A DNA stretch of 64,000 bases from assembly GCA_000004695.1 (NCBI GenBank), contig CM000150.2:1824001-1888000 (forward strand), in the 5' to 3' direction. The position numbers and the translations under genes were made by a program. The notes beneath the pieces are model-generated. The model was given only the letters and a program-made list of their open reading frames with translations, was not told the DNA's origin and made no database searches. This stretch comes from Dictyostelium discoideum (taxonomy: Eukaryota). Shown one piece after another: positions 10,588-56,273 of the stretch. Every line of letters begins with the position of its first letter. Within the stretch, counting starts at the first letter, position 1.

Positions 10588-14131
<3,544 letters not shown>

Positions 14132-21194: not shown

Positions 21195-21832
21195 ATTACT
21201 AATAAAATCAATTTTTATTTTATTATTAATATAAAAATAGATTTTTAAGAAAAGATCAATATGCAGTTGCTTTAGCATTAATGGAAGATAATAAACCAAT
21301 TCTAGGTATTTTAGGTTGTCCAAATTTACCAGTATCAAAGGGATCAACTGAAAAAGGTTGTATTTTTGTTGGTTTAAAAAATAAGGGTTCATTTATGATT
21401 AAATTATCAAATTTAGATCAAGAGGAACCAATTAAGGTTTCAAATCAATCCGATCCAACCAAAGCAATTTTCACAGAAAGTTTTGTTTCAAGAGGATTTG
21501 GTCATGAATTAAATCAAAAGATTTCAAATTCAATGGGTGTAACAGCAGAACCTTTAAAAATTGACAGTCAATGTAAATATGCAATGGTTGCTCGTGGTGA
21601 TAGTGATTGTTATTTAAGATTAACTCAATTAGATTATAAAGAATGTATTTGGGATCATGCTGCTGGTCATATAATCGTAGAAGAAGCTGGTGGTATTGTA
21701 ACTGATTTCAAAAAACAACAATTAGATTACTCAAAAGGTTTCAAATTAGAAAATAATGTTGGAATTGTTTGTTCAAATAAATTATTAAATGATTCATTAT
21801 TTGATTCAATTAAAAAATCAATTCAATTTTAA
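20690..21832 (+). CDS. 3'(2'),5'-bisphosphate nucleotidase (PAP phosphatase, SAL1/HAL2/inositol-monophosphatase superfamily). The CDS is join(20690..21096, 21241..21832).
   Basis: The protein has WWTLDPIDGTLG|FLRKDQYAVALAL..., matching the yeast HAL2 WVLDPIDGTKGFLRGEQFAV motif. It also has IWDHAAGHIIVEEAGGIVTDF, the WD-AAG motif. Donor GG|GTAAAT and acceptor AAAAATAG| restore the codon GGA. Confidence 0.85.
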
Positions 21833-27312: not shown

Positions 27313-28544
27313 TTATAGATCACTTTCCTCTTCATAGTGTATTTCAGTATTATGATCATAATCTTCACTGTTACTTTCAAAAGATTCATCAATACCTTTA
27401 ATAAAACACTTTGGAGAATGATTGCACACTCCATTAATTTTAGGAGAATGACAATTATCTCTTTTTGTTAATCTATCTTCACAATATAGATGATTTGGAT
27501 TTAAACATTTTCTATTGTTGCAAAGGAAAGAAATAACATATCCATGACCATGACCATCGGAGTCAATACAACTTGGATCATTTTCACAGGAATTTGCAGC
27601 CTTTGGATAAAGAAAGAGTTTTTTATCTTGATTGGTGTTGTTGTACCAAACGAGGTTGTGACCTTTAACATATTCAAGGAAAACATTACCACAAACTCTA
27701 ACTTCAACATTAACACCATCATTCTTGAAAATTTTCTTTTGATTTAAATTCATTTCATCTCTATTCATTAACCAACAATCTTTCTTAGATTTCTTTTCAA
27801 CAACTTCCATCAACATTTTATAAGTAGTTTTAATTTGATTATCATCTAAATCGAATATATCATTCTTTCTTATCTTTGATATTGGCGAGGTGGCGGCAGT
27901 GGTTGTGGTTGTGGTGGTGGCCGTGTTTCCAAAACGTACTTTTTAAGTGGTGATTGATTTGATATTGAAGATGGTAATAATGACGATGATGATGATGCAG
28001 GTGCAGATGGACAGTAAACTCTTTTTCTTAAAGTTGGTAATGGTGAATTTAAGGATGAAGGTGATTGAATATCAGTATTGGAATTACTACTACTATCATC
28101 AGTATTATCTTGGTCAGTGAAAAATTGTGAATTTTCTGAATCTTCTTCACCATCATCTTCATCACTATCAATATTATTTTCAGAAGATTCATCAACATTT
28201 ATTTTATTTAAAGATTTAAATTGTTTTTCTTGATTTTTGGAATTATATTTATCAATTTGTTGATTATTTTGTTGTTTAGATTTACTTGATTTTGACGATG
28301 TAAATTTTAAAGATGATTGGTTTGATGATTGTATTTGTTGTAATTGCTTTTTTGCTTGATTATTAATATTTTTATTATTGATATTATTATTAAAACTGTG
28401 ATGGGTATCATTTTTATCGGAATTAAATGTTACTTCACCAATATTAAAATCAATTTGATTTAAAAAATTAAGTGCTTCCCCAATGCATTGAATTGGAAAA
28501 GCCAATTTTTCTATTTTTTTTCTTTTTTGGTATGTTTCGTCCAT
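27313..28544 (-). CDS. Gene of unknown function with an apparent frameshift. The N-terminal ORF (28544..27870) is acidic and Ser/Asn-rich. The C-terminal ORF (to 27313) carries a Cys/His-rich domain (HGHGYVISFLCNNRKCLNPNHLYCEDRLTKRDNCHSPKINGVCNH). It is likely one gene disrupted by a +/-1 indel in a GC-rich CCACCACCACAACCACAACCACTGCCGCC segment, or a sequence error there.
   Basis: The two minus-strand ORFs overlap by ~80 nt in different frames (27816-27946). The overlap is GC-rich and has no plausible intron (Dictyostelium introns are ~90% AT). There is no room for an intergenic promoter between them. Confidence 0.45.
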
Positions 28545-29005: not shown

Positions 29006-32000
29006 TTAATGAGATGAATTATAATGTTTATCAATTTTATTTGCCAATTCTTTACAAGTGTTTGTAGCATCACCTAATAACATTGAAGTATTTGGTTTAT
29101 AAAATACTGGATTTTGAATATCGGCATAACCAGCATTTGTTAATGAACGTTTCATAACGATACAATGTTTTGCTTTCCAAACTTCAATAACTGGCATACC
29201 AGCGATAATTGAATTTGGATCTTCAACTGATGCACTATTGACGGTATCATTTGCACCAATTACGATTGCTAAATCTATATCTTTCATTTCTGGATTAATT
29301 TCTTCCATTTCGAAAACAATGTCATATGGAACCTTTGCTTCACTTAAGCAAATATTCAAGTGACCTGGTAATCTACCTGCTACTGGATGAATACCAAATT
29401 TAACATTGTGACCTTTTTCAATTAAAGTTTTAACCATCTCTGCAACTGGATATTGACTTTTACTAACAACCATACCATAACCTGGTACAATGAGAATATT
29501 TTTAGAGTTGGTAATCATTTCACTTGCTTGATCAACATTGATTTCAGTGTGAGTACCTGTGATTTTCATTGCTTCACCTTTTCCCATACTTGATGTACCA
29601 ACACCACCTAAAATAACACTCATAAGATTTCTATTCATAGCTTTACACATGATATATGATAAGATTGCACCACTTGAACCAACAATTGCACCAACAATAT
29701 TCAATAGGGATGAATCTAACATGAAACCTTCAGCAACCAATGCCCAACCTGAATAACTATTTAATACAGTTACAACAACTGGCATATCTGGACCATTAAT
29801 TGCAGCGGTTAATAAATGACCTTGAATGAATGAAAGAATAGTGGTAGCACCTAAACATGCTAAACCTAATGTTGGATTGGTTGTTGATAAGAAAGTTGCA
29901 AAAGTAGCAACATTTGCTAATGCTAAACCAGTGTTCACTAAATGACGATTTGGAACATGATATGGTTTTGATGGTACCTTCCATTTACCAATATGACCTT
30001 GTAATTTTGCATAGGCAACAACTGAACCTGTGAATGTAATACCACCAATTAAAGCACCCAAATAAACTGAACTCTTATGAATTGTATCTAAAGCTGCAAA
30101 ATTACTATAATCAGCCAATAAAGAGGCACCTGATGCCAATACAGCTGCCATACCTACAAAACTGTGGAATGCTGCAGTGAGTTGTGGAAGTTCAGTAAAG
30201 TTTACTCTCTTTGAAAACAAATAACCAATACCACCACCAACTAAACCAACACCAGCCATTTGAGCGAGTAGAGCACTTGATACACCTAAAGAAGCAACAG
30301 TTGCACCCAAACCAATTGCAATACCACCCATACCTAAAATATTACCAAGTCTTGATGATTTTGCACTTGATAAACCACTAATTGAGAGAATACACATAAT
30401 TGAAGATGCTAAGTATGCCAATTGAGTTAGAGCTGGACCACCACTACCAACCGTTGATAAATAAGCAGCCAAGAAACCTAATGATGGTATACCGTATAGA
30501 TATTCATAGGTTGGTTTATCAGTTGGTAATTTAAACATATCCAACATTCTCTTGGTGATTGTAAAACCACCAGCAATATTAATTGATGCCATAAATACTG
30601 CAGCACTTGCTAATAGTTGACCACCAGTCGAAGGTATATAACCACCACCCATTAAATGTAAACCTGCAACTGCTACTATACCACTAATTGCATTTGTAAT
30701 TGACATTAATGGACTATGTAATGCTGGTGTAACACCCCAAACTACTTTATAACCAATTAATGCAGCCAATGAGAATGTTGTTAAATTAACCATAAAATCT
30801 GCTGGTAATCCCATTGACATTGCAACTGCACCACACATTGCTGCTGTTGCACCCAATGCTGATTTCAATGTTTTATTAAATAATGAAGTTTCTTCTTTAA
30901 CAAGATTACTCTCAACCTTTTCTTTATTACTAACAGGTGTTGATGGTGATGGTGGAGTCACTGGAACTGGTTTCTTTGGGGCTGGCCAAATTAAAGTACC
31001 ATTATAAGTTACTGTTGAACCTCTATGAACTTCATCAGTGAAATCTAATTTGAAACCATCTTTATCATTACCTAAAGATAAGAGAAACTTGGTGATATTA
31101 TTACTATAGAGTGTACTTGATTGAGTTGCCATTTTTGATGGTAAATCAGTGAAACCAATAATTGAAACACCATTATAATTATAAGCTTCGCCTGGTTTTG
31201 TTAATTCACAATTACCACCAGTTTCAGCAGCTAAATCTACAATAACACTACCTGGTTTCATTTGATCAACCATTTGTTTGGTAATTAATTTTGGAGCAGG
31301 TACACCTGGAATTAAAGCGGTTGTAATTACGATATCCACTTCTTTACATTGACGTTCAAACAATGCCATTTCAGCCTCAATGTATTCCTTTGACATGTGT
31401 TTTGCATAGCCACCTGAACCTTCTCCACTCTCTTTGATTTTCACTTCTAAAAATTCACCACCCAATGATTCAACTTGTTCTTTGGTAACAGATCTAGTAT
31501 CGAATGCTCTAACGATAGCACCAATATTTTTAGCGGTACCAATAGCAGATAAACCAGCAACACCAGCACCAATAACCAATACTTTAGCAGGCTGAACTCT
31601 ACCAGCGGCTGTAATGGCTCCACCAAAGAATCTACCAAAATAGTTGGATGCCTCCATCACTGCTTTATAACCTGCAATATTTGCCATTGATGATAAACCA
31701 TCAAAAACCTGTGCTCTACTAATTCTTGGTATACAATCAACTGCAATGGCATTAGCTTTCTTTTGTGATAGTAACTTTAAAGTTTCTGCATTTTGTGCTG
31801 GTGATAAAAAGCTAATTACTGTAGCACCTTCTTTCATCATTTCAACTTCATGTTTACCCAAGTTTGTATTAAATTGTGGACCTCTAACCTTTAGTAATAT
31901 ATCGGTTTTCTTGAATAAATTAGCTGCAGTTGTAATTTTTGCACCGGCTTCAATATATTTAGCATCAGAGAATTTTGCACCTTTACCAGCTCCTTCTTCA

Positions 32001-32295
32001 ACTAACACTTTGTAACCTTTTTTCACCAAAACTCCAACATTTTCAGGTGTCATTGATACTCTCTTTTCATTTTGATAAACTTCAGTTGGGATACCAATAG
32101 TTAATTGTTCAAATGGAATACCTTTTGCATCTTTTGTTAATTCTAATGCCATATCAATTGATGTTATTCCTTGATTCGGTGTTGTTGGTAATACACTTCC
32201 AGTTTGATCTTTTAATGTACTATAAAATAATCTATTTGTTACATTTCTTTTAATTGAAACTTTTTTTTTATTTTAGTTTTAATAAATAATTAATA

Positions 32296-32574: not shown

Positions 32575-34187
32575 CTTTAATTACTTTTTTTTTTTTTTTT
32601 TTTTTTTTGATTTTGATTTTAATTATGATAATATAAAATAAAACAAATAAAATAATATACAAATAAAATAATAACAATTAAAAATACAGAAAAAAAAAAA
32701 AGGTTAGAAATTAAAAATACAGATAAATCAAAAATAATAATAAAAAAAAAAAAAAAAAAAAATCAATAAAAAATTAAGAAAAAAAATATTAATTTATAAA
32801 ATTATTGTAAATTTAATTTAGAAAAAAAAAAAAAAAAATAAAAAAAAAAAAAAAGATTTTTTTAATAATTAAATTTATAAATTTATAAAAAAAAAAATTG
32901 TCATTTTACAAAAAAAGACTTATTGTGATGTTGATAAAAATATCTATTTTTTTTTTTTTTTGTTTTTTTAAATTATTAAATTTGCTTTCTTCATTTTTTT
33001 TTTTTTTTTAAAAATTTTGTTAACGATTTTGTTATTATTATTATTATAATAATAATTATTTTTATTGCTTTATTGTTTTGAGGTAAAAAAAAAATGATGA
33101 AAAAAAAAAATAAAAAAAAAAAAAGTTGATTTTCAAATTGAAATAAAAAACAAAAAATAAAAAAGAATAAAATACGAACCACTAAAATCGCCAGATGAAA
33201 TAGACTCAATCAACCTAAAAGAGAGAATGAACCAGAATAAATAGACCAACCCACACCAGAGAAAAAGATCCTACAATTAAGTGAAATTTATTAGAGGTAG
33301 AAAAAAGATTAGATAATTTTCATCAATTATTTAAAACTATTATTAATTTTGTTTTATTTAATATCAAAATGTTATATAAAAATAATAAATAAATAAATAA
33401 ATAAATAAATAAATATATAAGAATTAGTAAAAATTAATTATTTTTTTCTTTTTTATACTTTTTTTTTTTAATTAAAAAAAAAAAACCATTAAAATATAAA
33501 ATTACTTTAGGAAATATTAAAAAATAAAAAATATAAATTAAAATTAATATATAAAATAAAATAAAATAAAATAAAAAAATATTTTATAATCACTTTTGGA
33601 AGAATGACATTCTTTTTGTTTTCCAAATTTATGTATTTTTTTAACCCGCCAATTTTTTGTGCATATTTAAATTTTAAAAAAAAAAACCTCAATTAATTTT
33701 TTCGTTAATTTTAGAAGTTTAAACTCAATATGAACTATAAATTATGTATGAATTTTTTTTTTTTTTTTAATTGATATTATTATTTATTTTTTTTAATTTT
33801 TTTCTATATTAATTAGTGAATAATTATAAACAAAAATTAAAATTATTATTTTTTACCAACTAAAAAATTACAGAATTCTATATATTACAACCCAAAAACT
33901 TCATTTTTTAAAAAATAAATACCAATTATATTATTTTTAGAACATCCGGTTACCAACTTGCTGTACCAATCATGCTTTTCTTTAATAGGATTTACTGGTA
34001 AATCAAGTTTAATAGATCCATTTAAAAAATGTTGGAAGAACTTTTCAAATGATGGTTATGGTCATGGACCTTTATTACAATTTTTATCACTATCTTTTTA
34101 AATATCAAACTTGGACAAATAAAAAATAAAAAATAAATAAATATAAAGAGTTTTTTTTTTTTTATTATTTGTTTATTATTTGTTTAT

Positions 34188-34227
<40 letters not shown>

Positions 34228-34321: not shown

Positions 34322-36328
34322 TTAAGCAACTTCACCAACAACAACAGTAGTTTCAGATGGCTTAACTTCTTCTGATTGAGTGGTTGGTTTGATTTCTTCA
34401 GTTGATTTAACTTCTTCTGATGAAGTTGTTGTGGTAGTGGTGGTGGTGTTTGATTCAACTGGTTTAACTTCTTCTGATGATTTGCCTTCCTCTTTTGATG
34501 ATTCGGCTTCCTCTTTTGATGGTTTGGCTTCCTCTTCTGATGGTTTAACTTCCTCTGATGGTTTAGCTTCTTCTGATGGTTTAACTTCTTCTGATGGTTT
34601 GACTTCTTCTGATGGTTTGACTTCTTCTGATGGTTTAACTTCTTCTGATGGTTTAACTTCTTCTGATGGTTTAACTTCTTCAGTAGTAGTGGTGGTAGTT
34701 GTAGTTGTTGTTGTTTTAGATTTTGATTCTTTAACTGGTTTTGATTCTTTAACTGGTTTAGCTTCAATGAAATTAAGGAATTGAGCAAAATCTTTTTTAA
34801 TACTAAGTGGGAAAACTACTTTTCTAACGAACCATGGAATAGTTTTATTCAAATTATCACTCATATCTTTATTTTGTGGAAGTTTAGCAGCATCAAGCAT
34901 AGCACCTAAACCAAACTTTGCTGATGATTCAGATTTCATTACTTTATGAATGGTATCACCAAGTTTAATTTGATCAGCTTTTGGAATTTGAACTGCAGTT
35001 GGTAAGATTAAACGTTCTTCATCGAAAAAGTGAATATAGATAATATCGATTTGTTCATTGAGATTAGTTTGTAATTTACCGAAAATTTCAGACCAACCCT
35101 CAGAGATGCTGTCTTTCAATTCGACATTGTCAGTGATTGATTTAACCAATTCTTCCAATTGTTTATTCTTTTCAATCCAATCGTGATGTTGAGTATCCAT
35201 AAGAGCTAAATGTTCAGCTACTTCTGGTTTCTTTTCTTTTAACCATGACCAGACAATGCTATCCTCATGACCATGATGATGATGGAGGAATTCATGAACT
35301 GATGAAACTGACTTAACCATTTCGACAACCTCTGCTCTTGATTTTGGTTCAAAGGTTTTCAATCTTTTTATTAATAAATTATAACAATGTTTAAGTGCTA
35401 CATGAGTCCAAAGCCAACCTCCCATCCAGAAATTTGTCTTTCCTTCATTCTTAAAGAATACTGAAAGATCATTTTCATCACGTCCATCTTCATTTTTAAT
35501 TGTTGTTAATACAATTGGTTCAACATTAACTTCTTCTGTTGCCTTTGTTTCTTTTGTTGATTCTTCAACTGGTTTTACTTCTTCTGATGATTTGACTTCT
35601 TCAGTTGGTTTTACTTCTTCAGTTGGTTTTACTTCTTCAGTTGGTTTGACTTCTTCAGTTGGTTTTGCTTCTTCAACTGGTTTGACTTCTTCAACTGGTT
35701 TGACCTCTTCGACTGGTTTGACTTCTTCAGCTTGTTTTACTTCTTCGACTGGTTTTACTTCTTCGACTGGTTTTACTTCTTCGACTGGCTTTACTTCTTC
35801 AGTTGGTTTAACTTCTTCGACTGGTTTTGCTTCTTCAACTGGTTTGACTTCTTCGACTGGTTTGACTTCTTCAACTGGTTTAACTTCTTCAACTGGTTTG
35901 ACTTCTTCAGTTGGTTTGACTTCTTCGACTTGCTTAACTTCTTCGACTTGTTTGACTTCTTCGACTTGTTTAACTTCCTCAGTTGGTTTGACTTCTTCGT
36001 CTTGTTTGACTTCTTCGACTGGTTTTACTTCTTCAGTTGGTTTGACTTCTTCAACTGGTTTGACTTCTTCGACTGGTTTGACTTCTTCAACTGGTTTAAC
36101 TTCTTCAACTGGTTTTACTTCTTCGATTGGTTTTACTTCTTCGACTGGTTTTACCTCTTCAGTTGGTTTGGTTTCTTCAACAGAGACTGATGTGGCTTCA
36201 ACTTTAATTTCTTCTGATGGTTGTTCAAGTTTTTCGTCTTCAATTGGTAAAGTATTTTCTACTTTAACTTCTTCGACTTTAGTTTCCTCTGAAACATTAG
36301 TTGGTGTTTCTAAATTGTTATCGCTCAT
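34322..36328 (-). CDS. Hemerythrin-like (HHE cation-binding) domain protein. The domain is flanked by an N-terminal array of ~30 EEVKP(V/T) hexapeptides and a C-terminal array of ~9 EEVKPS hexapeptides.
   Basis: It is a single 668-aa ORF. The central region WTHVALKHCYNLLIKRL...VHEFLHHHHGHEDSIVWSWL...HLALMDTQHHDWIEKN...IIYIHFFDEERLILP has His/Glu spacing typical of hemerythrin-like four-helix metal sites. The 18-nt DNA repeats GAAGAAGTTAAACCAGTT and variants are visible at 35560-36180 and 34470-34690. Confidence 0.55.
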   Translation of the reverse strand: MSDNNLETPTNVSEETKVEEVKVENTLPIEDEKLEQPSEEIKVEATSVSVEETKPTEEVKPVEEVKPIEEVKPVEEVKPVEEVKPVEEVKPVEEVKPTEEVKPVEEVKQDEEVKPTEEVKQVEEVKQVEEVKQVEEVKPTEEVKPVEEVKPVEEVKPVEEVKPVEEAKPVEEVKPTEEVKPVEEVKPVEEVKPVEEVKQAEEVKPVEEVKPVEEVKPVEEAKPTEEVKPTEEVKPTEEVKPTEEVKSSEEVKPVEESTKETKATEEVNVEPIVLTTIKNEDGRDENDLSVFFKNEGKTNFWMGGWLWTHVALKHCYNLLIKRLKTFEPKSRAEVVEMVKSVSSVHEFLHHHHGHEDSIVWSWLKEKKPEVAEHLALMDTQHHDWIEKNKQLEELVKSITDNVELKDSISEGWSEIFGKLQTNLNEQIDIIYIHFFDEERLILPTAVQIPKADQIKLGDTIHKVMKSESSAKFGLGAMLDAAKLPQNKDMSDNLNKTIPWFVRKVVFPLSIKKDFAQFLNFIEAKPVKESKPVKESKSKTTTTTTTTTTTEEVKPSEEVKPSEEVKPSEEVKPSEEVKPSEEVKPSEEAKPSEEVKPSEEEAKPSKEEAESSKEEGKSSEEVKPVESNTTTTTTTTSSEEVKSTEEIKPTTQSEEVKPSETTVVVGEVA

Positions 36329-37699
36329 TATTTTTGTACGAGAAAAATTATTTTAATGGTATTAAAAAAAAATTATGTTTTTTGTTTTTTTGTTTTTGGT
36401 TTTTTGTTTTTTGTTTTTGTTTTTGTTTTTTTTTTTTTTTTTTTTTTTTTTTTATTATTAGGGGTGTGAAAAAAAAAAAAAAAAATTTATGTTTACAAAT
36501 GTTTATATATAAAAATAATTATTTATAAATGTGGTGGTTGTGGTGTTTAAAATGAAATGAACAAAAAAAAAAAAAAAAAAAAAAAAAATCATTGACGTTG
36601 GAATTGTTTATTCCAATGATTTCATTTTTTTTTTATTTTTTATTATTTTTTTTTTTTTTTTTTTTTTCGGCAATTAACGCCATGGATTTATTTGAAAAAA
36701 AATTAAAACAAAAATAAATTTTCAAAAAATAAAATTGATTGGTTTTTATAATAAAATAAATAAAGAAGATTTATCATTAAAAAAAAAAAAAATTAAAATT
36801 ATAAAAAATTAAAAAAATAAAAATAAAAATATAAAAAGAAATAAAATTTAAACATTGAGAATTATCTGACAAGTGTAAACAATTTAAACTCATACCAAAA
36901 ATAAAAGATACTAATAATCAAATGATCATTTAATTATTATTATTATTATTATTATTTAATTTCATATTATTTTTTAAAATTATAATAGTTTTAATTTTTT
37001 CATTATTTTTTTTTTATTTTTTTTTTTAATCACTTTTTGGCATTCAATTATTTATTAAATAATTGATTACATATTAACTTTTTATTTTTATTTTTATTTT
37101 CATTCCGTTTTTGTTTTTTCATTTTTTTTTTCATTTTTTTTTATGATTTTTCTTTTTTTTTTTTGGATTTTTTTTTTGGATTTTTTTTTAGATTTTTTTT
37201 TAAAAGAAAAAGAATTATGTGTTATATTTTTATATAATTTATTAAATCTAGTTTACGCTTATTATTATTATTATTATTATTATTTTTATTATTTTTTTTT
37301 TTTTAAAGGAAAACTTAGAAAAAAAAAAAAAAAAAAAAATATAGTTAATTTTAGACGTTAGTCGTGTGGCAAAAAAATATTAAAATAACTATAAAAAAAA
37401 AAAAATTAAAAAAAATTAAAAAAAAAAAAAAAAAATTAAAAAAAACAAAAATTAAACAGGAATTTGAAATACTGGGGACCTTTTTCCTGTTTAATTTTTC
37501 ATTTTTTGACAACTAAACAATGATTTTCCACTTTATATTTTTTTATTATTTTTTTTCTTTTTTTTTTTTTTTTTTATTTTTTATTTTTTATTTTTTTTTT
37601 CTTTCTCCATACAGAAATCGAATTTTTTTTTTTAAAAGGAATACTAACAACAATATAAATTAATAATCAGTTAATTAATATTAATTGAAAATATATTAT

Positions 37700-37998: not shown

Positions 37999-39226
37999 AT
38001 GAAATCTTTTACATACATTTCATTTTTAATTTGTATATTATTCATTTTTATAAATATTGGACATGGTCAAATTTGGGAAGGTCCAAATCAAGAGTTGGGT
38101 ACATATTTTAGTTATGATAAAATGCAAGATCTTAATTATGATGTAACAAATTGGACTGTAAAAACAACAGATCACGATAGAACATATAATAGGTAAATAT
38201 TAAATAACAATTTTAATTTAACAATAACAATTTAAAAAATAATATATTAATTTCTTTATTTTTTATTTTTTATTTATAGATATGATTATTCATTTTTAAG
38301 ACTTCACCTTCGTAATACAAAATTTTTTTTTCATGGTTATATAGATGTTCATCCAAGAGTCGATGAGTTTACAACAGTTAAATTCTTAAAAAGTAAATAT
38401 TATTTCTATTTTCTATATATTTATTTTATATAAGTTAATATTAATTAAAATTTTTTTATTTTTTTATTTATTTATTTTTAGCTGGTTTTATTTATGATAA
38501 GATTAATCCAGATTATAATGGTACAGTTATGGATAGAGATAATATGTATACTCTTTCAGGTGAACTTATTGGTCTTAAAAATGTAACAACCTATACACAT
38601 CAATGGGTAAATGTTAGTAGACCATGTTGGGTAAATGGTACAAGAGCAATCAATTCACAATGTAATGGTACAACAATCGATATGAAGCCAATGAGAAATT
38701 GGTATGTTAAAGAATTACAACGTTTTAAAACTGTAAAACAAGAACCAATTCAATTACCAGAAAAGAAACTTACTGACAAAAACTCTGAAACTTTTGTATC
38801 AACTTTTGTAATCGTTATACAATTGGATGATGGTAAAATTGTTGATGCCACGTGGGATGGTGATAGGTTGCCCGAAGTCTGTAAAAAATGTGATGCTTGT
38901 ATTGATAATCAGTGTGGTGTTTATTGGGAAGATATGCCATGTGACCAATATAATGGTTGTATTTTAAAAATTATTGTTGCATGGGCTGGTAGAGATGCTT
39001 CTGGTACTAATTGTCGTTCAATTAATAGAGTAATTATTAAAATTTTATTAAAAAAAAAAAAAAAAAAAAAAACAAAAACTAATTTATAAATTTATAAATT
39101 TTATTTCAATAGATTCCATCAAATTTCCAAAGATACTCAGCAACTCCATACAAAAACATTGGTCGTAACTTTTTCGACGATTTTATGTACCGTGCTACCT
39201 ATGGCAAAGATCCAAATATTGCTTAA
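37999..39226 (+). CDS. Secreted cysteine-rich protein with a signal peptide and 4 exons: join(37999..38192, 38280..38392, 38482..39029, 39113..39226).
   Basis: The N-terminus MKSFTYISFLICILFIFINIGHG is a signal peptide. Donors are GTAAAT, GTAAAT and GTAATT. Acceptors are TTTATAG, TTTTTAG and TTTCAATAG. All junctions keep the frame. The mature part has 12 Cys (CWVNGTRAINSQCNGT..., CKKCDACIDNQCGVYWEDMPCDQYNGC) and several N-glycosylation sequons. Confidence 0.6.
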
Positions 39227-42296: not shown

Positions 42297-42476
42297 TTAC
42301 TCTTCACTAAAACTTAAAAATTCATCTTCTTCACTTAAACTATAATCATTATCTTCTAAAACAGTATTATCTTCACCCTCTTTATTTATTTTCTTGATTC
42401 TATTACATTCACTCTCACTATAATAATTTTCTTTGTCTTCATGCTCACCCTTGTCACCATCATCTTCATCATCATC

Positions 42477-42521
<45 letters not shown>

Positions 42522-45500
42522 TTCATCCTCGTCTTCGTCTTCGTCCTCATCTTCATCATCATATTCATCTTCAGAATCTGAATGAGGTTGAATTAATCCA
42601 TTTGGATTTAAATAGTCATATTCTTGAATTTGTTGTTCTAAAACACTGATACCTTTGGAATCAATTGAGACCATTGAGTTTATTGAATGAACATATTGAC
42701 AAAATGGACCCCAAGTTCTATCTTTTTTTAAGAGTTTAGAATTACCAATTACAAATAATCCAAATTTAGCTCTTGTGAGTGCGACATTAATACGTCTACG
42801 ATCAGAAAGGAAACCAATTCTTTCGCTTCTTACACACGATAAAATTATGATATCTTTTTCTGAACCTTGAAAACCATCAATTGTTGATGTTTCAATATTT
42901 AATGGATAATTAAACTGTTTATGTTGTTCTTTGATTTCACTCTTTTGTAATTTATATGGCGTAATAATACCAAATGAGAACTTTTTACATTCTGGATAAT
43001 CTTGAACTAACTTTTTAATCAATGTGAATACCATTGTGATTTCTAATTTATTCTTTAATGATCTTTTACCACTTTCTTCTTTTGAATCAATAACATCATA
43101 GAATCTAATTGGACCATATTTGATATCTGAATGGAAATTATGTTGATTGTATACTAATGACTTTACATTATCACCATCTAATAATCTGTCTCTATAGAAT
43201 TGATTTGATGGGAATCTTGAAATTGTTGGATGCATACGATATTGAACATGTAACATTTCAACTGGTAATACTTTTGATAATCTTTCGAATAATGATATAT
43301 TTAAACCATTTTCTGCACTTTCTGTAGAGAAGATAGTTGGTGGTAATTGTAATGGATCACCAACGAGAATTAACTTTTCAATATTACCAATACATAATGG
43401 AATTATTGATGATGGTTCAGTTGATTGAGTTGATTCATCTACTAATATAATATCTGCTCTAAAGTTGTTCTTAACAGTTTCAGAACCACTTCCAGATAGA
43501 GTTGAGAAAACAATGGATGCTCTATAGATACTATCAGATTTCTCACGTTGAGTTTTATTGAAAATTGAAATACTATGACAATCTGGTGATATATTTTCCT
43601 TTTTACCAATACGTACCATATTTGGTAAATAAGGTTTACCATCTAAACCTATTAATTTCTTTTTTGAACATCTCTTTGCAATTTCATCTACTGATGCATG
43701 TGATGGACCACATACTAATATCTTGAATTCTGGATTAATTGCTAATAAAATTGAAAGTAAATAATAAATTGTTGTAGTTTTACCAGTACCTGGTGGACCT
43801 TGAATTAATGTAATACCTTTTGTTGATAATGATGTTTCAATTGAATTAAATTGTGATGTATTCAATTCTTGAATACACATGGATCTCAACAATGATGGAA
43901 TAGCCATTCTCTTTGAGGATAGTATATCGTGGTCTTTTCTTGATGGTTGTAAAATTTGATCAAATAGTATTCCAGAATTTCTAAAATCTTTTATTGCATT
44001 CAACTCTCTAATGAATGTAATGCAATTTGAAACTTTTATAAAGTATAACTTTTCTTTTATAGTATTGGAATCTTTCAAATAGTTTTTATGATTGAATGAA
44101 ATTGAATCAAACATTTCTATTATAGGATCCATTGAATCTGATGAATGAAATTTACATTTTACAATTTGTGTATTCTCTTCTAAATCAACATTTGAACAAT
44201 TGAGTACTAAACCCATTGCAAACATTGGTTCATTGGTATTATCAAATACTTTAAAAAGTAAAACATCATTATAAAATAATTCTTGGGACCCATCATTTAC
44301 ATCAATTTCAAACTTCATAATTGAATAGTCGGATATCTCTTTAAATGAGTGAATTGTTGGTCCATCAATCATCTTAATTTTATCTAAACCTATTAATGTA
44401 CCATCTTTTTCTGATATTGAAACACCTTCAATTTCATCAAATTCACCTGCAAGTTGTTTCCTATATTCCTCCACTATCAAAGGTTTCATTAAATCCATAT
44501 ATTCTTCATGATTTGAGTAACTTGATTTCAAATTTCTAATACTATTCACCTGTATTAATGGAATTCTTTCTGGACTAATCTTTAAAAATATTGATAATAT
44601 TTCGTAAGGACTCTTTAAAAAAACACTAACTAATTCACGAATTAATACAATTTTTAAAAAATTTTCATTATTATTATAATTGTTTTTATTATTATTATTA
44701 TTAAATTTATTATTTGATTTGGTTGTTGTTGTTGTAGTAGTTGTTGGTGTTGTTGTTGGTGTTGGAGTTGGTGTTGATGATGAGTTTATTAAAACCTTTT
44801 CATTTTTAATTAATTGATAAATTTCATTAAATAACAATTTTGAAATTAAGGTTAACCTTTCAGAGTTTAATAATTTAAAAGTTGGAATTTTAATAGCGGA
44901 ACGATTAATTTTTGTTTTAGATTTAAATTTTTTGATAAAACCATCAGAGAATTTACCTCTAATTAAATCTAAAAAGTTTAATTTAGTTTCATTATTTCTC
45001 TCTAATTCTAATTTCAATTGATCTGAATTTATGGGTCTAAAAGTTTTTGTTTTTTCTTTTAACTCTGAAATTTGTGAGAAATGGTTGAATTCTATCATTA
45101 CCATTAATGATAATGATTTTTGATAAATTGAATCAATATTTTCAGTATTTATATTATTTCTTTGAACCATTGAAATATCGTGTATTAATCTAATTTTTAA
45201 AACTTGAATATGCATATTAAATTGATTTTTGTTCTCATCAATTATTTTCTTTACTTGTTCTAATGATGGTTGATAAGATGGATTCAATTTTGATAATGTA
45301 TCCAATTTTCTAAAAATTAAATCTGCACTATTTGAATCTTCAAATATTAAATTTAATAAACTACGTTTCAATGGTTGGTTTATATCAAAAGTGGATGAAC
45401 CACTTTGAGGTGTTGTTGTTGTATGAGTGGTTGCGGTTGTGGTGGTTGTGGTAGGTGAAAGTGAATCTGGTTCAATCACTGATTTAGTTGAGGCAATTTT

Positions 45501-47103
45501 TTGTGGTATTTGTTTTATTGTTGGTTGGGCCTCGTTTGGTTTACCTGGATTTATTGGAGCTGGTAATGACGGTAAAGTTGTTGTTGTAGGAGTGGTTGTG
45601 GTTGTGGTTGTAGTTGTGGTTGTGGTTGTGGTTGTGGTAGGAGAAAGTGAATCCGGTTCAATCACTGATTTAGTTGAGGCAATTGTTTGTGGTATTTGTT
45701 TTATTGTTGGTTGGGCCTCATTTGGTTTACCTGGATTTATTGGAGCTGATAATGATGGTAAACTTGTTGTTGTTGTTGTTGTTGTCGGAGTGGTTGTGGT
45801 GGTGGGTCTTATTGAAGTTGTTGTGTTTGTGGTGGTTATGGTAGGTGAAAGTGAATCGGATCCAATCACTGATTTAGTTGAGGCAACTGTTTGTGGTATT
45901 TGTTTTATTGTTGGCTTGGCTTCATTTGATCTACCTTGATTTATTGGAGCTGAGAATAATGGTAAACTTGTTGCTGTCGTCGACGTTGTTGTTGTTGTTG
46001 TTGTTTTTGTTGTTTTTGGTGCATTTGAATAGATAGTATACTTTTCTGATAAAGATTTTCCTTTTCCTATTAGCTTCATACATTTTTCAAATGATTCACA
46101 AATTTTGATAAAATTTGAATCAATTAAACCATCTAAATACTCTGTAAATCTTAAATCATTGATACGATAATTTTTATTCTTTAAAACTGTTCTAAATTCA
46201 ATTAATTCTTTTTTTAATTTACTTGGAAAAATACATTTTTCAATATCTAAAAACGATATTGGCATTTCAAATTGTACAGAAGTTTCTATTTCAATTCTAC
46301 CTCTAATTTTTTGTATTCTATTTGATGTTAATCTTTTAAAAAAAAAACTAAACTCGATTAAAAAATTTAAATTACTATAATCACTATATAATTGATATAT
46401 ATTTCTTTTAATTATATCATCTTCATCTTCATCTTCACCTTCATCTTCATCTTCATCTTCATCTTTATTATTATTATTATTATTATAATATAATAAATCA
46501 TTTCTTTGAAAAAATGTAGGAAATTTAGAAGAGACATGAATTGAAGCTGTATATTTGACATTGTTGATTTTACGTAATAAAAAGAATTTTGATGAGGATT
46601 TAAGTAATACTTCTTGAATTTTACTTTGAAAAGTTGGAAAATAATTTTCAATATCCTCTAAACTATCTATTAATATTGATGAGTTTATAGTTTCAGTGGT
46701 AATTTGAGGTGTTGGTGATAAATTAATTGTTTCATTTAATTGAGTTAATAATACTCCAAGTTTTGGGTAAAGTGATTTTATATAATTTGAAACTGTTTGA
46801 TTTGGAAGAGGCAATGAGAAATCTGGAATCATATATGATTCTGTTTTATTTGTAGGAGTGAAAATATATGGTTTTGAAATTAAATTTGGATCAAAAGTAC
46901 CAATTTTTTTAAATTTTATTGAAATTCCACTTGATTTTAAATGATTTTTAAAGTCATTTATAGAATTTTTTTTTGAACTTTTTGTTTGTGAAAAATGATT
47001 CTTTAATAAATGTATTTGATAATGTACATTAAATTTTATAATGGTTTGAAATTTGATAAATTTATTAAAAAAATCACTTGATAAAATTAAATGCTCACTA
47101 ACT

Positions 47104-47198
<95 letters not shown>

Positions 47199-47670
47199 TA
47201 AAAAATTATTCTTTATTTCTTTTAATAATTTTTTTTTTAATTTTTCAATCAGAGTAGTAAAAAAATCATCTTCCAAAGCTTCAATTATAAATTCTAGTTG
47301 ATCTACACATGTTGGAAATTGGACTTTTAATTGTTTAATTGTTTCTAATTGTTTTTTGGGGTTATTACATTCTTTAAATATTAATTTTATTAGATTATTA
47401 TTATTATTATCATCATTATTATCATCATTATTATTATTATTATTATTACTATTATTATTACTATTATTATTATTGTTATTATTATTATTAATGGTATTTG
47501 TCGATGATAATTCAGATTGCGTTGGATTTATTAATGACAAAGAAGGTGACAGATTTTTGCTTTCACTAGAAAAATTAAATGAGAGTTAGAAAAATGGCAA
47601 AAAAAAAAAAAAAAAAAAAAAAATATCTAATATCAATATTTTACTCTTCTGTTTTTAAAATAGAACCCAT
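42297..47670 (-). CDS. Copy 1 of a tandem paralogous family: a large UPF1/MOV10-like SF1 helicase protein. The CDS is join(47645..47670, 42297..47565). It has an Asn-rich N-terminus, the shared N-terminal module, 3 x ~57-aa Thr/Pro-rich tandem repeats, a C-terminal helicase core and an acidic poly-Asp/Glu tail. It has NO nucleotidyltransferase domain.
   Basis: Helicase motifs were read directly: GPPGTGKT (I), VCGPSHASVDE (Ia), LVDESTQ (II), VGDPLQLPPT (III), YRMHP (IV), DGFQGSEKDIIILSCVRS (V), VALTRAKFGLFVIG (VI). The short first exon ATGGGTTCTATTTTAAAAACAGAAGA|GTAAAAT and the acceptor TTTTCTAG| at 47566-47567 restore the frame (MGSILKTED-ESKNLSPSLSLINPTQ...). The TTG 'start' at 47540 in the ORF track is internal. 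Confidence 0.75.
45430..45950. repeat. Three tandem copies of a ~175-bp coding repeat inside helicase copy 1. They encode SLPSLSAPINPGKPNEAQPTIKQIPQTIASTKSVIEPDSLSPT + poly-Thr.
   Basis: Near-identical peptide and DNA repeats were read in the 42297..47540 ORF. They are mirrored in the antisense ORF 45427..45939. Confidence 0.8.
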
Positions 47671-49354: not shown

Positions 49355-52300
49355 CTAAGAAAGTAATCCATTTGACGATAATGATAAATTCTCTTTGAAT
49401 AAATCATTAATTGTTGTTTTGGTTGATCTTAAAGAATATTCCATCATTGTGAATTCCATTAATACTCTTTGGTATGTTTTTTTAATTGATGATGCTAAAT
49501 TTCTATCATTAATAAATGGATCAAGTACAATGATATGACCTTTTACTGGTGTACCCTTTATAGTTGATCTTTTTAATAATGCTCCATTTTCACATAAACT
49601 ACCACCACCACTTGAGTGACTAATTGATATGATATTCTCTTTATAATTAAATGTTGAATAATAATAAAAGAATTGATAAAACAATTGAGCGATTGTCAAT
49701 TTGTTTCTTTTTGGTTCAAATTTGTTAAAACTTGACCAATCATAATATTTAACTAAATAATTTTCTACGATTGTTTGTGATTTTAATTTAATTAAATTTC
49801 TATCTGTTGAATACTTTTCTAATAGTTGATTTGATGTTGTTTGTAAATTTGGTAAAATTGGTGGATTTAATGACTGAAGGAAATGAATTACCATATTAAC
49901 TAAACAGAATGAACTAAATGTTTTCTCTGCTGCATTATTTAAATCTTTTGAAACTGCCCACCATTTTACTAATAATGCTAAATCTCTACATCTTTTATCA
50001 ATTGAACAATATTCACCTAACAATAATGAATTGTGATAACTCATCATAGAATGAAAGCACATATCGAAATGAATACCTGATGATATCTCTTTGAATCTAA
50101 TGATTGGTACTTTTGCACTAATTCTTTTTTCAATTAATTTATATAGTTGAGATCTATTTAAATATTTATAAACTTGTTTTAAATGAGTTGTATCTTCTTT
50201 TTGAGTACTTGAGAAATTAATATCTAAATCACTATCATTCAATGATAATCCACTCAAGAATGAACCATATAAATTAATTGATGCTGTTGCGAAACCTTCT
50301 GATATTAATTTCTTTAATCTATTATAACTATCTTGTTTAATTGATTTCTTTTTACATTCAATTTTTGAAATAATTTCATTAAGAGAATTATTTGTTTTTG
50401 ATGATGATAAAGATTGTGAAATTTCTTGTATTTCTAAATTATTTAAAACTTTCTTTAAATATGAATCCAAGAGACGTGAATATTTAACAAAACTATCTCT
50501 TAATGTTTTCTTTTTTGATAAAGTTGATTGATCTATTTTTTCTTGATTTGATTTTTGTAATTCTATAATAATATTAATAAGAGTGTTTGGAAAATCTTTA
50601 TCAATGATTAAATTATTTGAATCTGGTGAAACTGTCTCATCTTCATCATCATCATCGCTGATACTATAATATTCATCATCATCATCATCCAAATCATCAT
50701 TATCTTCACCTTCTTGATTAATTTTCTTGATTCTATTACTTTCATCATCTTCATCATGCTCTTGTATTTCTTCATTATCTTCATCTTCGTCTTCCTCTTC
50801 ATCTTTACCATCATATTCATCTTCAGAATCTGAATGGAATTCAATTAATCCATTTGGATTTAAAGAGTCATATTCTTGAATTTGTTGTTCTAAAACACTG
50901 ATACCTTTAGAATCAATTGAGACCATTGAGTTTATTGAATGAACATATTGACAAAATGGACCCCAAGTTCTATCTTTTTTTAAGAGTTTAGAATTACCAA
51001 TTACAAATAATCCAAATTTAGCTCTTGTGAGTGCGACATTAATACGTCTACGATCAGAAAGGAAACCAATTCTTTCACTTCTTACACATGATAAAATTAT
51101 AATATCTTTTTCTGAGCCTTGAACCCCATCAATTGTTGATGTTTCAATATTTAATGGATAATTAAACTGTTTATGTTGTTCTTTGATTTCACTCTTTTGT
51201 AATTTATATGGCGTAATAATACCAAATGAGAACTTTTTACATTCTGGATAATCTTGAACTAACTTTTTAATCAATGTGAATACCATTGTGATTTCTAATT
51301 TATTCTTTAATGATCTTTTACCACTTTCTTCTTTTGAATCAATAACATCATAGAATCTAATTGGACCATATTTGATATCAGAATGGAAATTATGTTGATT
51401 GTATACTAATGACTTTACATTATCACCATCTAATAATCTGTCTTTATAGAATTGATTTGATGGGAATCTTGAAATTGTTGGATGCATACGATATTGTGTA
51501 TTTAACATTTCAACTGGTAATACTTTTGATAATCTTTCAAATAATGATATATTTAAACCATTTTCTGCACTTCCTGATGAGAAAATAGTTGGTGGTAATT
51601 GTAATGGATCACCAACAAGAATTAACTTTTCAATATTACCAATACATAATGGAATTAGTGAAGCTGGTTCAGATGATTGAGTTGATTCATCTACTAATAC
51701 AATATTTGCTTTAAAGTTACTTCTAACAGAACCAGAACCACTTGCTGAAAGAGTTGAGAAAACAATATTTGCATTTCTAATAATTTCTTTTCTTTGTGCT
51801 GGTGTTTTGTCATAGGGTGATATACGATGACAATCTGGTGATATATTTTGAAGTTTACCAATACGTACCATATTTGGTAAATAAGGTTTACCATCTACAT
51901 TTATTAAACTCTTTTTTAAACATCTCTTTGCAACTTCATCTACTGATGCATGTGATGGACCACATACTAATATCTTGAATTTTGGATTAATTGCTAATAA
52001 AATTGAAAGTAAATAATAAATTGTTGTAGTTTTACCAGTACCTGGTGGACCTTGAATTAATGTAATACCTTTTTTTGATAATGATGTTTCAATTGCATTA
52101 AATTGTGATGCATTCAATTCTTGAATACAAATGGATCTTAACAATGATGGAATCTCCATTCTCATTGATGTCATTAAATTATAAACTTCCAATGATGGTT
52201 GTAAAATTTGATTTAAAAGTGTTTTTGAATTTTTAAACTCTTCTGTTGCTTCTAATTCTCTAATGAATGTAGTACTATTAGAAACCTTTATAAAATGTAA

Positions 52301-55300
52301 AATATCTTTTGAATATCTTTTCGAATTCAATGAAACTGAATAAAACTTTTCAATTAATGGTTTCGTTGAATCCGATAATACAAATTCGCAAATTATTTTT
52401 TGTTTTTTACTTTTTAATTCTGAAGATCTTGTAACTAAACTCAATGCAAACATTGGTTTATTTGTATGATCAAATGCTTTAAAAAGTAAAATATCATTAA
52501 GGTATATTTCCTCTAATTCATCCTTAACTTTAATATTAAATGTAATTTCAACAGAATCCTCCGACAACTCTTGGAATGAATGAATTGTTGGTGTATCATT
52601 CATTTTAACTCTATCTAAACCTATTAATGTACCATCTTGTTCTGATATTGAAATACCTTCAATTTCATCAAAATCACCTTCGAGTTGTGCTCTATATTCT
52701 TCTACTATTAAAGGTTTCATTAAATTTACAAATTCTGATTGGTCAGAATAACTATCTTGTAATGAATGAATATTATCAGCTTGAATTAATGGAATTCTTT
52801 CTGGATTACTCTTTAAAAATATTGACAATATCTCTTCAGAATCTTTTGAAATTACTTCAACATGATCACGAACTAAAACAACTTTTCTATTATTATTATT
52901 GTTATTTCTTGATCTTATTGTAGTTGTTGCAGTTGCTGTTCCTGTTGGGGATTTGATAAACAACTTTTCACTTTTAATTAATTGGTGAATTTCATTAAAT
53001 TGTAACTTTGAAATTAAACCTAACTTTTCAGAGTTTAATAATTTAAAAGATGGAATCTTTAAAGTTGAACCATTGATTTTTGTTGTTGATTCAAAGTTAC
53101 TGACGAGATTATCAAAGAATTTACCTTTAACTATATTTGAAAATTCTAACTTCGTTCTATTTTTTTTTGCTAATTCTGAATTCAACTGATTGTATTTGTG
53201 TCTACAAGTCTTTGTTTTTTCTTTTAATTCTGAATACTGTGAGAAATGATTAAACTCTAATAATACCATTAATGATAATGACTTGTTATATATTTTTTCA
53301 ATATTTTGATTGCTTGTATTATTTTTTTGAATCTTTGAAATATCTGTTTTTAATCTATTTTTAATAGCATTAATAGTTGAATTAAATTGAGTTATACTCT
53401 CATTGATAATATCATTCACTTGTTCAATTGATTTTTTCTTTGATGGATATGATTTAAATAATCTATCCAATGTTTTAATAATTGAATCTGCACTAGTTGA
53501 ATCTTCAAATATTAATTTCAATAAACTATGTTTCAATGATTGGTTTATATCAAATGTAGTAGTAGCAGCACTAGTATTATTAGAAGCAGATGATGCTGTA
53601 GTTGATTTATCTGTTGATGTTGTTGCAGAGGTATTTGCAGTGGTTGAGGTTGTTGTTGTTGTTGTTTTTGTTGTAGCTTTATCTTTTATAATACTAGTGG
53701 TAGTTGAAGCTGTAGGTGTTTTTGAACTTGTTGTATTAGATATTTTTTGTGAATTTGAAAGTGATAAATCTTTATAATCTAATACTAAAGATTTTATATG
53801 AATTATAAAAGATTTTATTAAAGTTCCAATTGTATTATCACTTTCATTTTTATGACCAAGTGGTAATTTAAATAATTCTACATTCATCACATATTCAGTT
53901 TTTTTAGATTTAATATTTAATTTTACTTGTTCTGGAATATAGTTTGAAATGTCTATTGATTTTTGATCAATAAATGCTTCAACTTTAATACAAAATCTTT
54001 GGTGGTGAGTATTCAATAAATTGAATGCCTCTGATCTAGAATCCAAAAAGGTTGGTGAGTTTTTAACTGTGAAATTTTTATCAAAATATTCTTTAATATA
54101 ATTTCTTTGCACTAAATTACTAAATTCAATTAATGAAATGATTGTAAAAATTGTTTCATTAATTTCATTAAATTTTGATGGATTTACACTTGATTTTAAT
54201 AATTTTCTTATATCTTTTGATGTACCAATTCTATAAGATTCAGTCTTTTTTTTGAATGGTAAAACTATGTCTTTTACCATTGATTTAATTGAATCTATTT
54301 GTAAATTAAATGTTGGATATTGATTCTTTAAACTATCAATTGCTTCTGGTTTGTTAAAAAATGTATTAAATAATGAAAATATTTGTTTTTCAATATTTGA
54401 TGGTGTCTTCAAAATTACTGTTGGTATATTTGATAATAATTCTTTTGGTGTTGATGTTGGTGTTGGTGTTGGTGTTGGTGTTGGTGTTGGTGTTGGTGTT
54501 GGTGTTGGTGTTGGTGTTGGTGTTGGTGTTGGTGTTGGAGTTGGAGTTGGAGTTGGAGTTGGTGTTGGTGTTGGTGTTGGTGTTGGTGTTAGTGTTGGTA
54601 TTGGTTGTGTTGTTGTTGTTGAGTTTGATAAAAGTTGATAATCTAAAATTAAAGATTTTATATAAATCAAATGTGATTCGATTAATGTTCCAATGGTATT
54701 ACTTTCGATATTCTTGTGACCAAGTTCTAATTTAAATAAACCAATATTAAATAAAACTTTTTTAGAATCTAATTCTAACTTCAATGGTTTTGGAACAAAT
54801 TTTGAAACAAAAGATGGATTTTGACTAATAAATTCCTCTAGATTGATTTTTGATTTTTGATATTGAGTTTCCAATAAACCAAAAGCCTCTAATTGTAAAC
54901 TTGCTTGGTGTGTGATTTTGACTATATTTTTTTCAATATATTTTTTAACACTACTTCTTTGGATTAGATTACTCAACTCTATTAATGAAATGATTGTAAC
55001 AAATATTGTTACAATTTCATCAAACTTTTTTGAATTTATCTTTGAATTCAATGATTTTTTAAGTTGATTTAATGTTGTAATTTTCACTGAATCAATATTG
55101 GTTTGACTTTCTTTTATAAAAGTTTCAACTGATAATAATTCTGATTTAAAACCTGGGTATTTTTTAATCAAACCTTGAATATCTTCTGATCTGTGGAATA
55201 ATTTATTAAAAATTGAAAAAACTACGATTTCAGTAGTTGTTGGTTTTGTTTGTTGTTGGCTATTTATAACTTTTGATACCAATGATGGTGATGTTGCTAA

Positions 55301-56273
55301 TGGTACTGTTGGTGGTGATACAGTTGTTGTTGTTGTTGCTAATGACACTGCTGGTGGTGTTATATCAATAACTGATGTAGATGATATTTTCTGTTCTATT
55401 GTAGTTGTACCTAAACATTTATTATATAATTTACAAAGGTTGATAAAGTTTGATTGAATTGAAATTGATATATCTTGAGAATCTGAAAATTTTAAATAAT
55501 TTATTTTATAATTTTTACCCTTTAAAATAAATTTGAAATCATTTGAAATTTGACGAAATTTTGATGGATAATTACATTTGAAAACCTCTGATAATGTTAT
55601 TGTTATATTTTGAGCTGACAATTGATCATAAAGCCTTTGTTTTTGATCAGCTGTGATTGATGTATCATCTGTAAATAATTTCTTTAAAATTAATCTTTGA
55701 TATAAAAAACTAAATTCAATCATAATTTTCAATGCTATAAAATCATTATAAATTTGAAAAATATCGTTATTATTATTATTACGATTGATATTATTTAATA
55801 AATTTGTTTTTTTAACTAATTTACTAAATTTATCAGAGACATCTATTGAAGAAGATGTTTTAATAATTCCAATTTTATTCTCTAAAGAAGTTTTATCATT
55901 TTCTAAAATTTCTTTAATTTTCTTAATATCGAAATTTGGAAATAATTTACAAACACCATTAATTCCATTTATGATATCTTTTAAATTACTATGCTTGAAT
56001 ATAGTTTTAAAAATATCATTTTCATTACTATTTATAATTTGTGAATTTTCAGTAATATTCAATTTGTTCATATTATTTATTATTGAATCCATTGTACTAT
56101 TGGTGTTAGTGTTGGTAGTGGTAGTGGTACTGGTGGTGGTAGTGGTACTGGTGGTGCTCGATTCTACAGTTGTTTTTGTTTTTTCTGGTACGCTTTGAGA
56201 AATTGGATTGTTATTATTTGATGAAGGTGGTGGTGGTGGTGGTGGTGAAGTTGATGAATTTGGAATATTTTCC

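Follow-up and report, generated by a model that had tools for sequence, protein, structure and literature searches.

What kind of protein is encoded when one short hexapeptide is repeated, in near-perfect register, on both sides of a folded domain? This question is raised by a gene on the reverse strand of a 64,000-nucleotide stretch of Dictyostelium discoideum DNA (contig CM000150.2 of assembly GCA_000004695.1, positions 1,824,001 to 1,888,000). This whole stretch is referred to below as the window, and coordinates are given within it. The gene is a single uninterrupted open reading frame (ORF) of 668 codons plus a stop codon, with an ATG start, and two arrays of EEVKP-type repeats flank its core (residues 268-523, 256 aa). 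This core is a member of the hemerythrin-like (HHE) four-helix bundle family, and on sequence grounds the protein belongs to a stand-alone branch of that superfamily, characterized by a conserved helical C-terminal extension of about 78 residues. It is regarded as a stand-alone branch because it has neither the helix-3 HxxxH motif nor an F-box nor a ScdA_N domain. The repeats, the fold family, the conservation of the ligands, the architecture of the ortholog and the composition of the arms are established here.

The core contains the motifs HHHHGHED (349-356) and QHHDW (380-384), both quoted in the initial annotation, which had proposed a hemerythrin-like domain for it. Profile searches bear this out: the Pfam model PF01814 (Hemerythrin HHE cation-binding domain), whose gathering score is 25.3 bits, was matched with 29.3 bits by the whole protein and with 32.1 bits by the core. 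The family to which the core belongs was revealed by an exhaustive HMMER scan over 1.84 billion cluster representatives, which returned 34 proteins at E ≤ 1e-3. The amoebozoan-type branch is a small one, of 13 cluster representatives at E ≤ 1e-10. Word-indexed protein searches recovered one protein with the core as a query and five with a 19-sequence family profile. PF01814 was matched individually by 17 of the 19 aligned family members. Among structures in the Protein Data Bank (PDB), the 19-sequence profile matched the solved hemerythrin-like proteins NMB1532 (2p0n, E = 2.7e-8), YtfE (2.9e-5) and the Hr domain of FBXL5 (5e-3), and also ScdA, while the best match of the single core sequence was YtfE (E = 0.012). 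No NCBIfam model matched the protein. Pfam matches to LED_rpt, DUF3439, YtzH and Bflower lay below threshold on low-complexity sequence and were rejected; a match to a ‘LIM domain’ in PDB entry 9e5c was likewise discarded as compositional, since it aligned the repeat array with another repeat.

The predicted structure agrees with these assignments. AlphaFold2 (AF2), supplied with the 19-sequence alignment, modelled the core with a mean predicted local distance difference test score (pLDDT) of 93 and a predicted template modelling score (pTM) of 0.91, as four long helices and, after them, five short ones; an earlier run with two sequences (pLDDT 57) was set aside. The long helices span approximately residues 303-325, 331-366, 368-400 and 412-445, and they form the up-down four-helix bundle of the HHE superfamily. 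A core of about 250 residues had been described as one four-helix domain. Its span is correct, but it is not a single domain: it comprises a bundle of about 146 residues (300-445), the extension of about 78 residues and an N-terminal beta-hairpin (approximately 276-286) common to the closest orthologs only.

The near-invariant columns of the family alignment coincide with the HHE ligand motif. Six residues are predicted as di-iron ligands, H309, H351, E355, H381, H433 and E437, in an H / HxxxE / H / HxxxE arrangement, and their conservation is high: H309 in 17 of 17 sequences, E355 in 19 of 19, H351, H381 and E437 each in 18 of 19, and H433 in 16 of 19. The possibility that the His/Glu pattern of the core was merely a coincidence of spacing can thus be set aside. 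Alignment with hhalign places H351/E355 and H433/E437 onto H57/E61 and H126/E130 of FBXL5, in what we take to be the numbering and ligand list of that protein, and extending the ungapped register places H309 on FBXL5 H15. HMMER pairs H351, E355, H381, H433 and E437 with H129, E133, H160, H204 and E208 of YtfE (the numbering of the YtfE PDB chain runs one below that of the native protein). These YtfE residues belong to the crystallographic di-iron ligands, that is, the histidines and bridging glutamates (PMC9052748). A di-iron centre in the core is therefore the most likely reading of the predicted site.

The same site also indicates which kind of hemerythrin is involved. Helix 3 carries one conserved histidine, H381 (sequence M377...Q-H-H-D-W-I), with no partner at i+4 or i-4, and helix 4 reads H433-FFD-E437, i.e., HxxxE rather than HxxxxD. 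In a survey of hemerythrin evolution, His74 was found to be confined to the respiratory clade (PMC3730353). The single helix-3 histidine together with the helix-4 HxxxE thus points to a site of the non-respiratory type.

The C-terminal extension follows the bundle directly and lies outside the approximately 150 residues that align to hemerythrin-like domains in the PDB; no Pfam family covers it. It carries the conserved motifs IPKxxQ, F.LCAM.D and PWFVRK, with P498 retained in 19 of 19 sequences, R502 in 18 of 19 and Q453 in 17 of 19, and it was modelled at pLDDT 81-95. Most family members are about 230-270 aa long and lack arms; one of them, P0007, bears a long Thr/Pro/Glu N-terminal arm. Distant relatives of about 230 aa (P0019, P0036, P0037 and others), some of them bacterial-looking, carry a related PW..R or PLP.R tail, and the unit of bundle and extension is therefore older than the amoebozoan branch. 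The contig of P0037 looks bacterial and has a regulator-type neighbour, and that of P0036 has no annotated neighbours. Another member, P0005 (864 aa), has a predicted N-terminal PIP5K domain (PF01504, 1.7e-24) fused to a C-terminal hemerythrin-like core (PF01814, 6.6e-9); this may represent a genuine fusion of sensor and kinase, or else a gene model in which two genes were merged.

Within the named protein collection just one close relative was found, a protein of Dictyostelium purpureum with 60% identity; exact-sequence look-ups of the target and of seven neighbouring ORFs gave no match. The ORF of this relative (L001:9464-11155) is uninterrupted, encodes 563 aa and takes in the low-complexity arms on both sides; the protein starts with MSDNN, as the window protein does, and its core is 61% identical. 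The full-length protein matches PF01814, for which a precomputed assignment exists. The public model DICPUDRAFT_20741 (‘partial’, 251 aa, L001:10001-10753) covers the core only and appears truncated. Orthology is supported by a common neighbour, since both species have a DDB_G0273449-family gene (PF28132) upstream, in divergent orientation (window 38278-39181, + strand; L001:665-1805, - strand). Four further gene calls separate it from the ortholog in D. purpureum, namely those for an acetyltransferase, two TM2-domain proteins and a 703-aa protein whose family is unknown.

The layout of the two proteins is the same, with an acidic EExKPV-type arm, the core, two KPVKE units, a poly-Thr run and an acidic tail, which indicates that the architecture is ancestral. 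The details of the arms differ. The N-terminal arm of D. purpureum consists of irregular EE(S/T/V)KP(V/A) units of 5-7 residues, its linker reads KPVKEK-KPAKEK-KS followed by nine threonines, and its C-terminal tail is Thr/Glu/Ala/Lys-rich with EEVKPS absent. Because the arms of this species are degenerate, the regular arrays are considered lineage-specific.

In D. discoideum, arrays do flank the core as the initial annotation had described, with 34 N-terminal units and, on the other side, eight consecutive units plus five scattered ones. The N-terminal array opens with EETKPT at residue 51, followed by 33 consecutive EEVKPx-type units (residues 57-254). EEVKP(V/T/Q) had been given as its consensus; the repeat type is right, but the glutamine replaces proline at position 5 (EEVKQV) rather than occupying position 6. 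Tandem Repeats Finder reports this array at 35557-36181 (period 18, 34.8 copies, 84% matches, score 746) and the C-terminal one at 34533-34681 (period 18, 8.3 copies, 95% matches, score 270). The five scattered EEVKP-type units lie out of register downstream of the C-terminal array, at residues 599, 619, 638, 644 and 653, in a tail for which rows of period 21 and 42 were reported at 34470-34610.

At the DNA level the two arrays have different histories. Near-identical 18-nt units had been claimed for both, and this describes the C-terminal array, with four distinct units among eight; it is the only highly homogeneous one of the two. The N-terminal array, however, contains 20 distinct 18-mers among its 33 units, encoding nine peptides, with a mean pairwise identity of 84%; its longest perfect tract between adjacent units is 37 nt, and the only higher-order structure found in it is a single 70-nt duplicate, with a lag of 12 units between the copies. 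The valine codon at position 3 is GTC in 15 units, GTA in 11 and GTT in 5, with alanine instead in 2 of 33. The variation is thus mostly silent and the peptide is more uniform than the DNA, which speaks against expansion in a very recent burst and gives a hint of peptide-level constraint. Recent expansion, as originally suggested, suits the C-terminal array, which looks young; for the N-terminal array it applies only in the sense of regularity gained since the split from D. purpureum; the silent sites of this array have diverged considerably. Length polymorphism is plausible, especially in the C-terminal array.

The composition of the arms is simple. His, Cys, Trp, Phe and Tyr are all absent, and charged residues make up half of the sequence, with a net charge of -48 over residues 1-267 and -15 over residues 524-668, and glutamate makes up 32% of the N-terminal arm and 26% of the C-terminal arm. 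On a charge-hydropathy plot the boundary separates the two arms, which lie on the disordered side, from the core, which lies on the folded side. Searches with the N-terminal arm returned mostly LPXTG-anchored surface proteins of Gram-positive bacteria, with wall-spanning KPVEEVKP units, and also other linker-bearing proteins; the top LPXTG-protein matches reached 59% identity over 77% of the query. The eukaryotic target has neither a cell-wall anchor nor a signal peptide, and the likeness is a convergent extended-linker motif without homology. The arms also resemble the PEVK region of titin in their Pro/Glu/Val/Lys alphabet, in a proline about every six residues and in mixed charges. The titin PPAK motif is, however, about 28 residues long, against a period of six in the target, so that composition alone is alike; no Pfam match to PPAK/PEVK was found at E ≤ 10. 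The earlier suggestion of flexible linkers fits this composition. The arms are net-acidic polyampholytes, predicted to be intrinsically disordered, that most likely serve as extended entropic spacers or solubilising bristles; their regular arrays arose in this lineage as an ancestral EExKPV motif was amplified in tandem and homogenised.

Two other views of the arms have to be weighed. It is quite possible that they have no function of their own and are neutral, slippage-generated low-complexity expansions beside a functional core, as is common in Dictyostelium coding sequence. This would suit the irregular and shorter arms of D. purpureum with a C-terminal tail of other composition (TEAKETT-type), the armless state of most family members, and the lack in the arms of any residue type fit for specific binding. 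On the other hand, both species retain an acidic, Pro/Lys-containing arm on each side together with the two KPVKE units and the poly-Thr linker, the long N-terminal arm of P0007 shows that the target and its ortholog are not alone in bearing one, and the valine codons of the N-terminal array vary at the third base while the amino acid is altered in just 2 of 33 units, which suggests peptide constraint. The initial annotation had also raised metal-binding tails, i.e., low-affinity sites for cations such as iron or calcium that would feed or buffer the di-iron core. Carboxylate content is all that speaks for this idea, in the glutamate fractions and net charges given above, and we consider it improbable: the arms have no histidine, cysteine or Asp-rich clusters, each glutamate pair is partly neutralised by a lysine two positions on, the D. 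purpureum arms keep the composition and lose the spacing, and nothing was found to link the arms with the site in the core.

Comparison with known hemerythrin-like proteins helps to place the core. The closest in kind are NMB1532 and other stand-alone HHE proteins of about 230 aa from bacteria and protists, which share with the target the four-helix bundle, the H/HxxxE/H/HxxxE pattern and the LHHHHxxED signature; in the target and its D. purpureum ortholog this plan is expanded by a long disordered arm at either end. To our knowledge, no member of this stand-alone group has a known function. The FBXL5 Hr domain (PDB 3v5x/3u9j) is likewise a eukaryotic, non-respiratory bundle with a single helix-3 histidine. 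It differs in what surrounds the bundle: a Pfam scan of the target to E = 10 detected neither an F-box nor a leucine-rich repeat (LRR), and its flanks are low-complexity repeats, so it would have no built-in ubiquitin-ligase output, unlike FBXL5. The C-terminal extension of the target family differs from FBXL5 as well, and the position of what we take to be the bridging E58 of FBXL5 is a histidine (H352) in the target. YtfE/RIC and ScdA (PDB 5fnn, 7bhc) have a symmetric set of four histidines and two glutamates like that of the target, five of the six ligands aligning directly; the YtfE bundle has been described as having a left-handed twist (PMC9052748).

From these observations we infer iron binding, a sensor or reactive role for the core and a spacer role for the arms. 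In the reading that we consider rather probable, the protein is soluble and probably cytosolic, with the di-iron HHE core as a responsive or reactive module and the arms as disordered spacers. Its functional unit would be the folded core, approximately residues 268-523, in which the two bridging glutamates (E355, E437) and H309, H351, H381 and H433 would hold the di-iron in a YtfE-like arrangement and the helical extension would pack against the bundle. The core would respond through its iron occupancy, its redox state or a reaction with O2, nitric oxide (NO), nitrite or H2O2, and this response would change the stability, conformation or partners of the protein. Several points weigh against this proposal. 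Metal binding itself is deduced from conserved ligands and fold; the leader (residues 1-50) has no hydrophobic segment and no signal peptide, the latter as assessed by eye alone; low-complexity tandem repeats abound in Dictyostelium proteins, so that the arms may simply be tolerated and serve no purpose; and ‘sensor’ is a prior rather than a result, because the functions of HHE proteins are very diverse. They include O2 sensing in DcrH and iron/O2 sensing by mammalian FBXL5, and NO peroxidation is among the roles of the superfamily. YtfE carries out nitrite reduction and Fe-S repair (PMC9052748). Sensing of O2, NO or iron, as first suggested for this gene, may nevertheless be called a reasonable inference from the superfamily.

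The main rival to a responsive module is an enzyme of the RIC/YtfE type, which would convert nitrite to NO, detoxify NO or H2O2, or donate iron for Fe-S repair. YtfE is the best structural match of the single core and the second of the family profile, and the 4-His/2-Glu set is as symmetric as that of YtfE (PMC9052748). We nonetheless regard such an enzyme as unlikely, as identity to YtfE is low and restricted to the bundle, the RIC-defining ScdA_N domain was not found in Pfam to E = 10, the N-terminus being occupied by the EEVKP array, NCBIfam gave zero matches, and the family has its own C-terminal extension, absent from RIC proteins. A true oxygen-carrying or oxygen-storing hemerythrin is hardly to be expected at all. 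The lone H381 in helix 3, the HxxxE of helix 4 in place of HxxxxD and the empty result from NCBIfam, presumably the library that holds canonical hemerythrin models, all speak against it, as does the restriction of His74 to the respiratory clade (PMC3730353). Since the HxxxH that oxygen carriers have in helix 3 is missing, a di-iron module that responds or reacts is more likely than an O2 store; the 4-His/2-Glu site and the lack of an output domain likewise favour a module responsive to iron, redox state or gas.

Table 1. Parts of the hemerythrin-like gene and their positions in the window.
Feature	Residues	Position	Strand	Basis
Complete single-exon ORF, 668 aa	1-668	34322..36328	-	D. purpureum ORF with the same MSDNN start, colinear across the core
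N-terminal leader, acidic, low-complexity	1-50	36179..36328	-	Translation, composition
N-terminal array, 34 in-register hexapeptides	51-254	35567..36178	-	Tandem Repeats Finder, in-frame reading
Spacer and start of folded core, with short beta-hairpin (~276-286)	255-299	35432..35566	-	AF2 secondary structure, alignments
HHE four-helix bundle	300-445	34994..35431	-	Pfam, AF2, alignments
Family-specific helical C-terminal extension, ~78 aa, five short helices	446-523	34760..34993	-	Conservation, AF2
Linker: KPVKES x2, SK, poly-Thr	524-549	34682..34759	-	Tandem Repeats Finder row 34721-34759, D. purpureum comparison
C-terminal array, 8 tandem EEVKPS/EEAKPS units	550-597	34538..34681	-	Tandem Repeats Finder, in-frame reading
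Degenerate C-terminal tail, scattered EE(V/A/I)KP and second poly-Thr run	598-668	34325..34537	-	Translation

The gene (Table 1) lies in nuclear dictyostelid DNA and not in a prokaryotic genome, so the logic of bacterial promoters and terminators does not apply. Base composition, typical Dictyostelium genes such as a STAT and an FNIP-repeat gene, and the D. purpureum ortholog all place the window in a dictyostelid genome. The window is strongly AT-rich, with a GC content of 14-36% per 2 kb; it is about 32% over the gene, compared with about 15% in the flanking and intergenic DNA. The gene is directly bordered on both sides by long homopolymer runs of T and A (26-76 nt; 34151-34223, 36378-36453 and 36563-36667), as is typical between dictyostelid genes. 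Long ORFs on the + strand at 35592-36356, 35732-36190 and 34380-34784 were dismissed as mirror-frame artefacts of the repeats.

Several other genes were recognized in the window. The next gene downstream on the same strand encodes a fused alpha+beta single-chain NAD(P) transhydrogenase (29006-32152, - strand; AlaDh_PNT_N/C, PNTB_4TM and PNTB). Three tandem paralogues of a large SF1 (AAA_11/AAA_12, Upf1-like) helicase occupy 42297-47540, 49355-56092 and 57042-63992 on the - strand, and the last ORF comes to within 8 bases of the edge of the window. Two of them are larger (2245 aa and at least 2316 aa), with a Cid1/TUTase-type nucleotidyltransferase and PAP_assoc at the C-terminus, and are thus fusions of a helicase with a terminal uridylyl/adenylyl transferase; the third (1747 aa) is without the transferase part. 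A 1120-aa ORF at 10769-14131 (- strand), with Dict-STAT-coil, STATa_Ig and EF-hand_12, is a Dictyostelium STAT transcription factor, and an ORF at 333-1394 (- strand) encodes an FNIP-repeat protein. A 167-aa ORF (27313-27816, - strand) matches PF05551 (zinc-binding loop of His-Me homing endonucleases) at a borderline 27.3 bits, with a cut-off of 27. On the + strand, a 183-aa ORF (21281-21832) matches only the C-terminal part (positions 113-268) of the 271-position profile for inositol monophosphatase and probably represents a single exon from a spliced gene.

The protein described here is uncharacterised but belongs to a superfamily that is known. Its domain would also be recognized by automated annotation, because the D. 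purpureum ortholog already has its PF01814 assignment, and no report on this gene was found in the literature on hemerythrin/HHE proteins of Dictyostelium or on EEVKP repeats. Flanking low-complexity repeats are commonplace in this organism; the gene is nevertheless a clean example of an ancestral EExKPV motif homogenised to a regular 34-unit array in one lineage and degenerate in a sister species. What the analysis defines is a small eukaryotic HHE branch, marked by its conserved C-terminal extension and by a 4-His/2-Glu site like that of YtfE.

The sensor for aerotaxis of single Dictyostelium cells is not yet known; mechanisms based on mitochondria, NO or oxidative stress have been ruled out, and no abnormal aerotaxis phenotype was seen in PhyA-Skp1 pathway mutants (PMC10307954). 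Hemerythrin is mentioned neither in that paper (PMC10307954) nor in a 2025 transcriptome and proteome study of hypoxia. That the amoebozoan branch of HHE proteins of about 230 aa could be an overlooked oxygen- or iron-sensing system of Dictyostelium is a long shot. If the P0005 fusion is true, a di-iron sensor would be coupled directly to phosphoinositide signalling and motility. The members of this branch may be taken as candidates for the sensing of oxygen, iron or NO in Dictyostelium.

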